Shown: positions 768-45,899, counted from the first letter of the stretch. The stretch is 64,000 bases of DNA from Octopus vulgaris (GCA_951406725.2 OX597814.1:96472001-96536000), one strand, 5' to 3'. The notes: generated from the sequence alone by a model not told the origin. Numbers and translations are program-made.

Positions 768-1533
768 TATTAAAGTGTTCGTGTATATGATTAGACTATT
801 TATGAATGCACTGTAGTGTTTCGTTAGCTTTTACTGTAGTGGAGCATAAAAAAAAAATCTAATCTAAGTGTGACATCTAGCAAATAAATTAGTCTTGACT
901 GTCCTTCACTGTAGTAGAAAAACTGGGTTGCTTTAAAAATTTTGATGAAATTCTTAAGGATGTTGATTTGAACTTGTTGACAGTCGCTTTCATCTGTGTT
1001 GCAAAATAAAGATAAAAATTGATCATTCAGCAAAAATTATCACTCCACCCAAGCTTTCAGAGTCAAATTTATTACGTCTGTCAAATCTCTACCACTCTAC
1101 CTTGAACTTCGATGCCATCACAGAAAATTCCACCCACTTGCCGAAACATCCTACATTATCTCTTCCTTTTAAAATTATTCCTTCACTCATTCATTTATTG
1201 CATAAAAGGTTAAGTCCAAGAAATGCTCTTATATTTCATTGTTTGAATAATCCTTTCTCTCGAAAAACTTCGAAGCCACTACAAATAAAATCTCTAAGTG
1301 TATATATATAGAGAGAGAGCATAATTAAATCTCAGAATGAGATTGAAACAGTAATCACTCGATAATGTAAAGTATAGAAGCCATCTTATCATGGCTAACC
1401 ACATTGGGGAGGGGGTGTTACTGTAGCTTTATAGCCCCAAGAGATCGTCGTCTCTAGCTGGCTTTAGACACAATATCAGTGCCTTGGAGTATTTGCAAAG
1501 GGAGGCCATCCTTCCTCGCAAGCCTGAGTGATA

Positions 1534-1576
1534 CGCTCGAACTAGTTTCGGGATTTTTGTCCCTTGTCAACGGGCG
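1534..1576 (-). ncRNA. Type I hammerhead ribozyme, U3-A8 core variant
   Basis: reverse complement: cgcccg TTGACAA ggga-caaaaa-tccc GAAA ctag TT cgagcg; stem I 5 of 6 bp, stem II 4 bp, palindromic stem III ACUAGU. Confidence 0.7.
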
Positions 1577-1891
1577 GTAACCACCAGGTCGCGATGAAAG
1601 TGAAGGCTGCTTTGCAAATATATAAGTTTTTCTAGTGGCGTCTGCCACTGATGTCGAAAAACTAACAGTAAGCATAATTAAATCTCAGAATGAGATTGAA
1701 ACAGTAATCTCTCGATAATGTAGAAGCCATCTTATCATGGCTAACCACATTGGGGAGGGGGTGTTACTGTAGGTTTATTCTGAGATTTAATTATGCTTAC
1801 TGTTAGTTTTTCGACATCAGTGGCAGACGCCACTAGAAAAACTTATATATTTGCAAAGCAGTCTTCACTTTCATCGCGACCTGGTGGTTAC

Positions 1892-1934
1892 CGCCCATTG
1901 ACAAGGGACAAAAATCCCGAAACTAGTTCGAGCG
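1892..1934 (+). ncRNA. Type I hammerhead ribozyme, U3-A8 core variant (inverted-arm copy)
   Basis: cgccca TTGACAA ggga-caaaaa-tccc GAAA ctag TT cgagcg. Confidence 0.65.
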
Positions 1935-2112
1935 TATCACTCAGGCTTGCGAGGAAGGGATGGCCTCCCTTTGCAAATACTCCAAGACATTGATATTGTG
2001 TCTAAAGCCAGCTAGAGACGACGATCTTTGGGGCTATAAAGCTACAGTAACACCCCCTCCCCAATGTGGTTAGCCATGATAAGATGGCTTCTATACTTTA
2101 TATATATATATA

Positions 2113-2870
2113 CGCCGAAAAATTTGAAGACTTTTGCTATCAGCATGCAAAACTAAATGCAATACCAATTAAATACACTGGACCTGGAGGGATTGCAATT
2201 CGAGAGACATAGTCAGTGCGAAATCTGGGCATTTACAGGAGTAATGATGCATCCTTTCATGTGCATGTTGCTAAGCTGGCAATGAAATGCAGGTGGCTGA
2301 CCGAATGGATTCTTAGAACTTTTAGAACAAGAGATCGGGAAACCATGATGGTCCTCTGGAGGACACTTGTTCTAAGCCACTTTAACTATTGCTCCCAGCT
2401 ATGAAAACCAACCAGTGTCAAAGTAATTACAGAACTTGAGGCAATCCAACGAAGCAACACGAAGAAAGCCTCTATATTATATATAAGCTACTGGGAAAGA
2501 CTCGAGAAATTAAGTCTCTATTCTTCAGAGCATAGGCGAGAAAGATTTGCCATAATATACATCTGGAAGATCCTGGAATAACTTGTTCCAAACTTTGGCA
2601 TCGAGAGTTACACTAATACTAGAACAGTGCGCCACTACATAGTGCCAAGGACTCCAGATTTGCCATCAAATATACAAGATACTGCTTTAGAGAACCACAG
2701 CTCTTCAGTGTCCTCCCGAAGGATCTGAGAGACGTGCATGGGGTGGATGTAGGTGTTTTCAAAACGAAGCTGGATATCTTACTGTCAAGTGTTCCAGATG
2801 AACCAACTGCAGGAAGTGCAGATGAGAGCAGCGGTATCAAACTCCCTCATGCACCAAACTATCAATTTCT
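2113..2870 (+). pseudogene. Decayed 3' end of a CR1/L2/Jockey-group LINE reverse transcriptase
   Basis: VRNLGI...WILRTFRTRDRETMMVLWRTLVLSHFNYCSQL resembles the RT C-terminus; stops and frameshifts. Confidence 0.75.
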
Positions 2871-2976
2871 AAAAGAATTAGTGAAGTAAAATTATGTAGC
2901 AACACCAAATGGCGGTACCCCAGCATGGCCACAGTTCATGAGATAAAACTAGATTAAATCTAAAAAAAAAATTCAT

Positions 2977-3423
2977 GGCGCAGGCGTGGCTGTGTGGTAA
3001 GTAGATTGCTTAACAAACACATGTTTCCGGGATCAGTCCAACTGCGTGGCACCTTGGGCAAGTGTCTTCTACTATAACCTCGGGCCGACCAAAGCCTTGT
3101 AAGGGGATTTCGTAGACGGAAAGTGAAAGAAGCCTGTCGTATATATGTATATATATATATATATATATATATATATATATATATATATATATATATATAT
3201 GTATATATGTATATATGTGTATGTGTTTGTATGACTGTTTGTCCCTCCACCATCGCTTGACAAGCGATGCTGGTGTGTTTACGTCCCTGTAATTTAGCCG
3301 TTCGGCAAAGAGACAGATATAATAAGTACTAGGCTTACAAAGAATAGGTTCTGGGGTCGATTTACCGATTAAAGGTAGTGCTCCAGCATGGCCGCAGTCA
3401 AATGACAAAAAAAAATAAAAGAA
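2977..3423 (+). mobile_element. tRNA-derived SINE family B with an internal (TA)n tract
   Basis: ggcgcaggcgtggctgtgtggtaag head, ccttgggcaagtgtctt CORE-like segment, tail ccagcatggccgcagtcaaatgac; homologous to 43999-44400. Confidence 0.8.
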
Positions 3424-43004: not shown

Positions 43005-43172
43005 TACAGGGTAAATGTTTTTTAATTTTCTCCTGGTTTACGGAATTGATGTTATTTTGCGGTTAAAGCTTTTGGCTGTTATTTCTAGTGGGTGAATGAC
43101 CTATTATGGCCGTTCCTTGATTGTGATATATATATATATATATATATATATATATATATATATATATATATA

Positions 43173-43922
43173 GTTATCCGTAATAATGAAGGGTGAAATT
43201 AATTAATTTGGAATAATTATCAATTACACCAAGTAGTCTTCGGCATGTAAAAGCCTCATTCGAGGAAAATTTAAGTAATACTAAGCAATAAAGGGTTTAG
43301 CAACGAATTGCCTTACCACAGACCGAATTTAGAAATAGCAGTCAAAGAGTTATAGCTATTTCTTCTACTAAAAAGGGAGATCTCAGTAAAAAACACAGCA
43401 ATTGGAAGGCAGACACAAACAGGTAAGAGAGAATGAATTGACGGCAATCTATCATACAATTTTAAGTTATCTACGGACGCACGTTTCGAAATCAAGTTTT
43501 TAGGAAAGCATGAGAATTAAATATTAAATAATTCTACGTTACCCAAACTTCTTTTCTCTTCAGCGTAGAATACTATAATCATAAGTGATTATATATTGAA
43601 TTTTGAGATACTAGAAGGCACCAACTCAACTCAGTATCAGAGCGAGCTAGAATCCGCAACTAGTATCACCAAACTCAACGTGTGAATGAAAGGATTGTGT
43701 CACCAGCCCCTTCCCACCCGCGTGTAGCCAAAACAAGATGCTATGGTCATCTACTGAGATAAAATATGGTTATCCGTAATAATGAAGGGTGAAATTAATT
43801 AATTTGGAATAATTATCAATTACACCAAGTAGTCTTCGGCATGTAAAAGCCTCATTCGAGGAAAATTTAAGTAATACTAAGCAATAAAGGGTTTAGCAAC
43901 GAATTGCCTTACCACAGACCGA
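43173..43922 (-). mobile_element. 596-bp hammerhead element with 154-bp terminal direct repeats, between (TA)n tracts
   Basis: 43173-43326 equals 43769-43922. Confidence 0.9.
43470..43569 (-). ncRNA. Type I hammerhead ribozyme
   Basis: reverse complement: tctacg CTGAAGA gaaa...tttc GAAA cgtgcg TC cgtaga; 6-bp stem I, G10.1-C11.1 pair, GUC site. Confidence 0.85.
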
Positions 43923-43998
43923 TATATATATATATATATATATATATATATATATATATATATATATATATATATATATATATATATATATATATATA

Positions 43999-44400
43999 GG
44001 CGCAGGCGTGGCCGTGTGGGAAGAAACTTGCTTCTCAGTCACACGGTTCGGGGTTCAGTCCCACTGCGCGGTACCTTGGGAAAGTGTCTTCTACTATAGC
44101 CCCGAGCTGACCAAAGCCTTGTGAGTGGATTTGATAGACGGAAACTGAAAGAAGTCCGTCTTATATGCATAAATATCTATGTTTGTGTGTTTTTGTGTCT
44201 GTGTTTGTCCTCCACCATCGTTTGACGACCAGTGTTGGCGTGTTTGTGTTCCCATAACTTGGCGGTTCGGGAAAAGAAGCGATAGAATAAATACCTGGCT
44301 TTAAAAATAAGCACTGGAATCAATTCATTCTAGTAAAAACTCAAAGCGGCGCCCCATCATGGCCGCAGTCTTATGACTGAAACAAGTAAATAATAAAATA
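43999..44400 (+). mobile_element. tRNA-derived SINE family B
   Basis: ggcgcaggcgtggccgtgtgg...gggttcagtccc...catggccgcagtc. Confidence 0.8.
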
Positions 44401-44516
44401 TATATATATATATATATATATATATATAATTCAAATTTATAGAGAACAAAAGACGAAGGCAGGTGAAGGAACAACAAGCAGGTATATCATTTTAACGCCC
44501 GGGAAGAATGGAAAAG

Positions 44517-44554
44517 TCTTTGATGTTTCGAGCCTACGCTCTTCGTCAGAAAAG
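44517..44554 (-). ncRNA. Minimal type I hammerhead in a ~230-bp TA-flanked element (about 44430-44660)
   Basis: reverse complement: tcttt CTGACGA a gagc-gtag-gctc GAAA ca TC aaaga. Confidence 0.7.
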
Positions 44555-45899
44555 ATTGAGAGGTGGGAGGGGGGCAAAGGAGAGAGAACGAAAAAAAACG
44601 GAGAAAGAAAAAATTGTGTGGGGATTAACGGTTCAATATGTTGAAATGGCCGGAAGATATATATATATAGGCAGACCGTAGAAAGGCATGCTACTGTGGT
44701 TGTTCTCTGAGAGACAGTATCTTCAAAGATATTATGTATCGAAGCAGTGACTCATGATAACATTAGACACGTTTCGGCCTTCCTCGGGCTTGTTTAACAG
44801 AACATTTCTGTTGATGGAATGTGTCCATTAACTTCAGACCTAGGAACAAACTTTACTATATGCACTAATCTCTTTTCTTGTTTGTATATATGAATAGAAA
44901 TTAGAAAAAAAGAAAGAGAAAACATAAGGGTGTGATAATATAACTGCCTGCTGGAAACTTTGTTAAAGGAATATTTTTTGTTTATTTAGTAAGCGTTTTC
45001 TCCTTAAAATTCGTTAGATGAACTGAGTGAATTGTACACTCATCGATAAACTCAGAATAAGAAACGTGGGGTCATATACATTTGTTGCCTCCCATTCAAG
45101 TGCGTCACAAATGTCTCGCTAAAAGTACAGAAGCCTGAGTTCACACACCTTTGTTACCTAAAGAAATTGAACATCTATATCCACGAATTCAACTTTCTCC
45201 TATAATTTAAAACTGGTTTTTTCCTCCCAATGAAACATGTACCTGTATGTCTCAAAAATGTCTGATTTTAAGCACTCACACAAATGGACATCCATACGCA
45301 CGCGCGGACATACGCACGCACGCACACAGCCATACCCACGCCCAGCCTCACATACACACACACACACTGGTTGTTTTTCTGCATTGAAATAATATTGCAC
45401 ACTGTGTTGTTCTACATTTAAGGATTAGCACTTTCATTTGTAAAGAAGATTGTACCTTCGCGCTTTCTCTCTCCATCTCTTTTACTTTCTTCTCCCCACG
45501 CTCTTTTCTCTCTCTCGCTCTCTCTACGTATATATATATATATGTATGTATGTATATATATATATATATATATATATATATATATATATATATATATATA
45601 TATATATATATATATATACATATATATGAGAGTGGTACTGGTATTTAGAAGACCCTAAGAGTGGCTGGTAACGTTAAGTAAGTACTATGGATAGACCGTA
45701 GTTAAACACTTGGTTCAATAGTAAAGCGAGTGAGAAGTTTAATATGGGCCTTGTATTAGCATGCATATACATATGTTAGACAAAAAGAGATAACAAAACC
45801 AAGGCTGTGAGTAGTTTTCAGGACATATATAAGGAAACGGATATAAATAGGCGCATCTTTTCGTTTAAATATCTGAGATAGAGAATCTTTGGAATGTCT

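Follow-up and report, generated by a model that had tools for sequence, protein, structure and literature searches.

Hammerhead ribozyme motifs recur along a 64-kb window of the Octopus vulgaris genome (C1:96,472,001–96,536,000; the assembly spans 2.80 Gb in 227 contigs, and positions are counted from the first letter of the window). We hold with high confidence that the elements carrying these motifs are Penelope-like elements (PLEs) and retrozymes, here designated E1 to E11 and X38 (Table 1). Many of their insertions consist of two outward-pointing arms, of which one ends at a short and the other at a long 3' position. We read this pattern as the work of PLE ends and hitch-hiking non-coding elements, with the two-armed pairing arising from two starts on one RNA, and assign this joint reading a probability of about 0.6.

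The pairing of ends was nearly invariant. Both ends could be classified at 66 of the 75 two-armed loci seen, in five groups, and these comprised 63 short+long, three short+short and no long+long loci (p 6.5e-16 against 0.5). Insertions of E7, mapped from the predicted cleavage site, were mostly composed of two outward-pointing arms that meet at their 5' sides and are flanked on either end by (TA)n. In the partial tally of E7 (35 of 40 scored loci), 29 loci were two-armed, five were one-armed and one was cut by the locus edge; one arm ended at about +131 and the other at about +225 to +244 in 28 of the 29 two-armed loci. The same combination was found in 13 of 16 two-armed loci of E1 (one short+short, two unclassifiable), seven of nine of E2 (two unclassifiable) and nine of ten of E10, the last being a by-eye count from which one duplicate locus was dropped.

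Either E7 arm may be the longer one, and both arms carry one haplotype. The arms of an E7 locus differed from each other by 0.59%, compared with 1.54% to other loci, the difference being lower within the locus in 28 of 30 cases, and 74 of 86 repeated locus variants occurred in both arms. Similarly, the arms of the coding parent of E4 were 98.4% identical over 1894 nt, as against approximately 93% to another locus. The long-end arm of E7 exceeded the other arm in length at 15 of 28 loci and fell short of it at 13, with extremes of 5146/230 and 102/2883 nt. The inner arm ends were scattered over the whole unit, with few near-palindromic junctions; 19 of the 29 junctions overlapped by 1–38 nt and two were flush. 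Within the E7 arrays, 75 of 95 repeated variants were fixed in the array and 20 were found in some units only.

These observations can be accommodated by the following sequence of steps. The PLE protein would bind its RNA downstream of the hammerhead, and the GIY-YIG domain would cut AT-rich DNA; at self-complementary (TA)n, both strands would be cut, giving two primers, and two reverse transcriptases (RTs) would begin at two fixed positions of one RNA. The enzyme starting further 3' would displace the strand, each RT would run a variable distance, and the growing cDNA ends would be joined via short microhomology. A circle, produced when the hammerhead cleaves and the RNA is ligated, or else a multimer left uncleaved, would yield arms of up to 10 units. 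Two fixed starts on one RNA would place one haplotype in both arms and would never give two equal ends. We rate this one-RNA, two-start mechanism as slightly better than an even bet. A more specific form, in which a dimeric enzyme carries out a double-ended PLE insertion on one RNA by cutting both (TA)n strands and placing two RTs at fixed sites 44–106 nt apart, which in the retrozymes would both travel round a circle made by the ribozyme before their ends are joined, is tentative, at somewhat less than even odds. If true, it would account by a single rule for the tail of PLEs, their head-to-head inversions, the preference for microsatellites and the multimers of retrozymes, and thousands of young copies would record it. 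The purified PLE protein of the green anole, for which a dimer is predicted, cuts and extends both strands; it starts at two internal sites, which set the tail, and worked in vitro without requiring the hammerhead (Frangieh et al. 2024, PMC11167929).

Several points weigh against the two-start reading. In the anole system (PMC11167929), the two start sites served either strand alike in vitro, so obligate pairing is not given by that system alone. The scored loci were the best-scoring matches and not a random draw. E8 fitted less well: in a partial tally of 16 distinct loci, six of 11 two-armed loci were short+long, two were short+short and three were unclassifiable. Eight of the 29 E7 junctions were gapped, not overlapping, as estimated from BLAST edges, and the 20 part-array variants of E7 are unpredicted by a single monomeric circle. 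A point in favour, that TA was adjoined by 19 of 25 two-armed copies of E1 and E2 compared with three of 29 one-armed copies (Fisher p 1e-6), is confined to E1/E2: in E7 and E8 all copies, one-armed ones included, lie in TA. Finally, no autonomous partner with sequence in common with E1/E2, E6, E7, E8 or E10 was found, so the case for trans-mobilisation is a structural one.

The main rival, which we regard as unlikely, is fold-back: the RNA is reverse-transcribed once, the product then primes on itself (or on an antisense template) and is copied back, and the endonuclease finally trims this copy to the other type of end. Such a route has been put forward for head-to-head repeats of PLEs whose junctions are palindromic (PMC3846280), and it likewise predicts that the arms share a haplotype and that microhomology is present where they join. 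However, a fold-back copy cannot exceed its template, and the near-equal division of E7 loci between a longer and a shorter long-end arm would require both polarities. The inner ends of E7, offset over the whole unit and rarely near-palindromic at the junction, also speak against it, and fold-back offers no natural reason why the copy should always stop at the other end type. Twin priming of the L1 type was rejected: the same 3' sequence recurs in both arms, and the inner end of either arm bears no relation to where its partner ends on the outside.

The hammerhead motifs were sought with a custom-written type I descriptor, whose earliest form (stem II of at most 40 nt) overlooked most loci. 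The first usable descriptor gave seven strict matches in the window versus 0.3 in 20 local dinucleotide shuffles, and 18 versus 7.3 at its loosest tier. Later tiers, which were set only after the first hits had been seen, gave 11 window motifs against a shuffle mean of 0.14 (maximum one; 100 shuffles), and seven against 0.02 (100 shuffles) in the strict subset. A first-pass annotation of this DNA had listed a series of hammerhead folds and expected their density to exceed that of shuffled sequence; a motif was found at or beside every listed position, and the expectation agrees with the excess of 11 motifs over 0.14. The core boxes (CUGANGA or its U3-A8 variant, GAAA and UH, in type I order) were intact in 12 of 17 window motifs, namely 1540(-), 1928(+), 15672(-), 30903(-), 31083(+), 35287(-), 35503(+), 42014/42505/42996(+), 43476(-) and 44522(-), and damaged in five. 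The folds that the annotation had called weaker, at 7067 and 40185, are present as motifs with damaged cores, and those at 10164/10529 and 31976 proved to be damaged too. Relatives with intact cores were found for the damaged motifs at 7117, 10170, 10567 and 31980 (families E10, E2 and E5), and the E10 hammerhead was intact by descriptor in three of 14 other loci of its family.

Conservation of pairing was assessed in the E1/E2 superfamily, to which the annotation's claim that stems change while pairing is kept can be applied. Among 16 hammerheads, 12 of 16 stem pairs were altered on both sides, in support of that claim for this superfamily, and the core pair C3-G8 was replaced by U3-A8 in five. 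This level was reached by none of 500 shuffles, and slid controls collapsed; the rows were 16 diverse picks from 49 distinct hammerheads and are related, so that the figure is not a probability. An Rfam scan of the whole window returned no hammerhead among the 150 of 189 matches listed, which were microsatellite noise. The motif at 1540 matched Hammerhead_HH9 at 30.3 bits (E 1e-5), under the gathering score of 52, and local Rfam scans of E9 and of an intact E2 relative gave no hammerhead match. The window motifs are real type I hammerhead motifs, which may self-cleave, probably as dimers; published PLE hammerheads cleave weakly or require protein (Cervera and de la Pena 2014, PMC4209133; PMC11167929). 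A plus-strand reading of E1/E2 from CUGAGUGA at 1525 was rejected, the motif being on the minus strand.

At least two of the families, E3 and E4, are truncated tips of coding PLEs that belong, by their motifs, to the Hydra clade. E3 matched, at 97% identity over 742 nt, sequence lying downstream of a 745-aa open reading frame (ORF) of RT-GIY-YIG type at locus L329, and other copies of E3 extend approximately 2.3 kb upstream into an ORF (also L286 and L287). The L329 ORF contains DKT, YRDD, CxCX5C, CxxC and CRH, a set of motifs that marks the Hydra clade. The parent of E4 has a 3' non-coding region of approximately 4 kb, which runs into an ORF with CNCPDKTTC and YIG; CxCX5C, YIG and CxxC were present in this ORF, and DKT and CxH were not seen. 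CxCX5C, CxxC, CxH and DKT, with no CCHH between GIY and YIG, were found in L329, L330 and relatives. No N-terminal RWK was present among the ORFs listed, and L330 has KWK at the matching position. A Naiad parent for E3 was rejected because the endonuclease is C-terminal; Naiad elements have an N-terminal GIY-YIG and no canonical hammerhead, whereas a hammerhead is present in the parents found and their endonuclease is C-terminal. The elements also display the structural marks of PLEs, that is, a partial tandem forming a pseudo-long terminal repeat (pLTR), an inverted 5'-truncated copy, an optional 3' tail, and a hammerhead that lies within the pLTR and precedes the 3' end. In the Hydra-type PLEs (L329, L330 and L281–L284), asparagine-rich inserts separate the RT from the endonuclease. 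For the older 3' ends E5 and E9, an RT-like match lay directly upstream of E5 in one of 15 loci, and the upstream search for coding parents found none for E9.

Intact PLEs of the Neptune type are also present in the genome. They encode 781 aa with RVT_1 and GIY-YIG domains and a CX4CxxC linker, contain a direct repeat of 456 nt, carry a hammerhead of the U3-A8 type in the pLTR and end in TA; no nucleotide match linked them to the non-coding families of the window. In one of them (L288:1406-2482), a separate ORF of 359 aa precedes the 781-aa ORF, with no Pfam family above the cut-off. The Neptune-type fragment in the window was detected by tblastn (40% over 67 aa, E 1.6e-9); its 3' region reaches approximately 5620, and a degenerate hammerhead-like stretch may lie at approximately 5690–5740 (-).

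The families E1/E2, E6, E7, E8 and E10 belong to the known class of animal non-LTR (long terminal repeat) retrozymes, are non-autonomous and with units of approximately 350–600 nt, and they are likely copied in trans by PLE enzymes, as their shared architecture suggests. E1 and E2 aligned at 68–78% identity and belong to a superfamily of 344–357-nt units in which additional subfamilies are present. The left arm of E1 (minus) is a partial tandem that reaches the long end, and its right arm (plus) reaches the short end at unit position 310. E7 and E8 form young head-to-tail arrays, mostly 97–100% identical, with up to 10 and up to five tandem units per arm, respectively; E1, E2, E6 and E10 are mostly partial tandems. 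The fold z score was -5.6 for the E1 unit and -5.9 for the E7 unit. First-look candidates numbered 499–3849 per family (1596 for E1; 13 for E11), figures that are not copy numbers. No coding parent was found within 1.5 kb upstream of E1, E2, E6, E7, E8, E10 or E11; the parent search gave three upstream hits (L005, L268 and L231), of which only that of L268 adjoins its element. An empty-site check at E1 found only the filled allele in two sequencing runs, possibly the source of this DNA itself, and no coverage in two others. Among the sequencing runs that contain these elements, none is recorded as RNA; contigs of runs that we guess to be RNA cover the E7 unit, and provide no evidence either way on expression.

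The first-pass annotation had proposed at least eight sequence-unrelated families of non-coding parasites, which amounts to a convergence of many ribozyme RNAs on the TA niche. The number of families holds, with nine well-supported groups and a weak one at 40185, and convergence would be consistent with the 39 BLAST clusters formed by hammerhead regions among 518 motifs and with the lack of mutual similarity between most window families. The unrelatedness does not hold: E1 and E2 are homologous, and the families at 35280, 41916 and 43470 (E6, E7 and E8) share a positioned box. Non-coding hosts were confirmed for E1/E2, E6, E7, E8 and E10, but E3 and E4 are tips of PLEs that continue into RT-GIY-YIG ORFs. 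Moreover, the tail, partial tandem and inversion are common to all, which points to one machine. We therefore consider convergence very unlikely, and already largely refuted for E1–E4; what survives of the earlier interpretation is that the elements are mobile, carry ribozymes, bear Penelope-type marks and favour (TA)n.

The box in question is 14 nt long, is common to E6, E7, E8 and X38, and may be a loading signal before the short start in several families. One exact 18-letter form of it occurred 5869 times, compared with none for the reversed control, and among the first 100 places, judged by eye, 22 clusters within 1 kb pointed outward and none inward. The box also occurs in an older, abundant repeat that has no TA directly after it (window 54245 and 60085; L167, L172, L185, L188, L207 and L225), where it may be a captured promoter or a piece of a short interspersed element and not an enzyme-loading signal. 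Two more elements, at 8460–8950 (-) and 13300–13520 (+), carry a box variant and decayed hammerhead-like stretches, the former being a partial tandem with a period of approximately 324 nt.

Density and the (TA)n niche were examined in 60 evenly spaced 10-kb regions across C1–C20 (600 kb), which contained 23 motifs at 19 loci, compared with 0–3 in each of 10 shuffles. This corresponds to approximately one motif per 26 kb, the window being approximately 4.5 times richer; the 40 kb flanking the window contained one motif, and the annotation's one locus per 6 kb is thus not typical. By rough extrapolation, this genome may contain approximately 100,000 hammerhead motifs. The 17 sampled regions from C12–C20 (L209–L225) contained no hammerhead, versus 23 in the 43 from C1–C11. 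The association with TA, also put forward earlier, was upheld: (TA)5+ was located within 250 nt downstream of 16 of the 23 motifs and upstream of three (background 0.22), indicating that the TA tract marks the 3' end of the element. The insertion bias of PLE endonucleases for (TA)n has been published (Craig et al. 2021, PMC8557442), and the common niche is best explained by this target bias and not by convergence. TA tracts collect successive insertions. At 41585–43998, E8 points into the (TA)23 that ends E7, and (TA)38 lies at the 5' end of E8. An enzyme that adds TA solely at 3' ends is unlikely, given this 5' tract on a one-armed copy.

The arrays and inversions might also be later products of unequal crossover, gene conversion or rearrangement between inserted copies in unstable TA. 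Local amplification has been suggested for vertebrate retrozymes (Li et al. 2026, bioRxiv 10.64898/2026.07.22.740005), and some variants are limited to part of an array. Such processes, which may still add units later, would not produce outer ends that are fixed as short+long across dispersed loci, nor leave the inner junctions random while the two arms share a haplotype, and as the origin of the two-armed form they are highly improbable. Long-read chimeras or assembly artefacts are extremely unlikely: assembly is difficult where inverted repeats adjoin (TA)n, but the arms are approximately 0.6% apart with different fixed ends, unlike fold-back chimeras, the old families E6 and E10 show the same form with diverged arms, and this form has been described in other animals (PMC8557442, PMC3846280).

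Table 1. Hammerhead-bearing elements and associated features of the window
Feature	Position	Strand	Remarks
E1, two-armed non-coding element	1318..2103		357-nt unit; tail ~44 nt
E1 hammerhead motif, type I	1532..1578	-	U3-A8 core (UUGACAA); palindromic helix III
Second E1 hammerhead motif	1890..1936	+	First pair of stem I mismatched
Neptune-type PLE, broken C-terminal GIY-YIG fragment	5985..6185	-	Just outside left end of E10; contains stop
E10, two-armed non-coding element	6204..7383		Period ~510 nt; left short end, right long end; other repeats mid-element
E10 hammerhead motif, damaged	7066..7125	+	GAAA to GGAA (core at 7117); stem II shortened
E2, two-armed element	9949..10620		344-nt unit; E1 superfamily; right arm interrupted by another insertion
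E2 hammerhead motif, damaged	10162..10209	-	CCGACGA (U4C); GAA in place of GAAA, one A lost (core at 10170)
E2 hammerhead motif with U4C	10527..10575	+	Core at 10567; CUGANGA in most relatives
E3, 5'-truncated 3' end of coding Hydra-clade PLE	15446..16255	-	Ends in (TA)15
E3 hammerhead motif	15664..15742	-	44-nt stem II, weak stem I; core intact
E4, two-armed tip of second Hydra-clade PLE	30812..31104		Long end left, short end right
E4 hammerhead motif	30895..30947	-	Core intact
E4 hammerhead motif	31040..31091	+	Core intact
E5, old 3' end	31885..32090	-	Damaged hammerhead motif 31972-32059 (GAAA to CAAA, core at 31980); relatives intact
E6, old two-armed non-coding element	35119..35778		Period ~420 nt in L152; box-bearing; right end approximate
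E6 hammerhead motifs	35279-35356(-), 35434-35511(+)		Cores intact
X38, short two-armed E8 relative	38475..38765		Box-bearing; truncated before hammerhead; 77-83% to E8
E11, weak hammerhead motif in old element	40182..40227	-	CUGAUAA; C3.A8 mismatch (core at 40190); 12 distant matches at 66-75%
E7, one-armed array	41585..43127	+	3.1 units of 491-nt retrozyme; ends at short end (+131) in (TA)23
E7 hammerhead motifs, predicted cleavage sites	42014, 42505, 42996	+	
14-nt box RRCTGYTATTTCYA	43074..43087	+	~30-60 nt before short end
Further box copies	35163(-), 35652, 38537(-), 41601, 42092, 42583, 43343(-)		
E8, one-armed copy of 596-nt retrozyme	43172..43921	-	Long end (+308); (TA)n on both sides
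E8 hammerhead motif	43468-43571	-	Core intact
E9, old 3' end	44429..44650	-	Minimal hammerhead motif 44514-44557

The window has a GC content of approximately 36% and contains many (TA)n, (CA)n and (TAA)n tracts. Its other repeats include decayed pieces with inverted ends that resemble DNA transposons, which we take to be Tc1/mariner-like (4393–5600, 7385–8460, 8995–9905 and 10780–12990), and decayed fragments, presumably of RTs or endonucleases of long interspersed elements (20260–22020, 2105–2960, 46000–48300 and 63550–64000).

The classes of element described here are all known, and type I hammerheads have already been reported, in general terms, both from the pLTRs of PLEs and from non-LTR retrozymes (PMC4209133; Cervera and de la Pena 2020, PMC7229834; bioRxiv 10.64898/2026.07.22.740005); the tail on one arm has likewise been described in words. 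Our literature search, which did not extend to subscription papers and supplements, found no pairing count, no link between arms and haplotype and no two-armed retrozyme multimers. It also found no paper on octopus hammerheads or retrozymes, and supplements might list octopus PLE families or inversion models; the main text of the octopus repeat annotation (PMC13282606) does not contain the word 'ribozyme'.

Hydra-clade PLEs (PMC8557442) agree with the parents of E3 and E4 in the C-terminal GIY-YIG, the CxCX5C linker, DKT, CxxC and CxH, the absence of CCHH, the hammerhead in the pLTR and insertion at (TA)n. Published Hydra elements are generally shorter than 3 kb, whereas here 2.3–4 kb of non-coding DNA follows the ORF. 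The Neptune clade is represented by the intact 781-aa elements of this genome and by one broken fragment in the window. The minimal hammerheads of PLEs (PMC4209133) resemble those of the window in the palindromic helix III, the U3-A8 variant, the extra base before stem II, the many families per genome and the opposite-strand pairs 100–700 bp apart; unlike that minimal type, only E9 is truly minimal, stem I of E1 is extended as in canonical hammerheads, and several motifs have a very long stem II.

Animal non-LTR retrozymes (PMC7229834; bioRxiv 10.64898/2026.07.22.740005) are, like the window units, non-coding, head-to-tail and provided with one type I hammerhead each; they, too, are dispersed and occur alongside PLEs, which have been proposed to mobilise them. 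E7 (491 nt) and E8 (596 nt) exceed the 170–400 nt given in PMC7229834, and their stem II measures 68–69 nt. Published retrozymes are circular RNAs, whereas the window units are known from DNA alone. Outward two-armed arrays with paired ends or a TA target are not described in the available text of these two reports.

The closest mechanistic parallel is PAc, the Poseidon element of the green anole (PMC11167929), which has, as seen or proposed here, an internal start downstream of the hammerhead, two starts that define the tail, cutting and extension of both target strands and an AT-rich target. Both strands use both sites in vitro, whereas the genomic loci described here use one site per arm, and the tails here are approximately 44–106 nt, compared with the 30–40 quoted for PAc. 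The origin of PLE tails and inverted repeats and the copying of retrozymes are stated to be open (PMC8557442, PMC11167929, bioRxiv 10.64898/2026.07.22.740005). Near-identical arrays with strict short+long pairing provide a testable constraint and RNA templates that could be used at once in the in vitro system already established, and this mechanistic result is the more useful one, the classes themselves being known.

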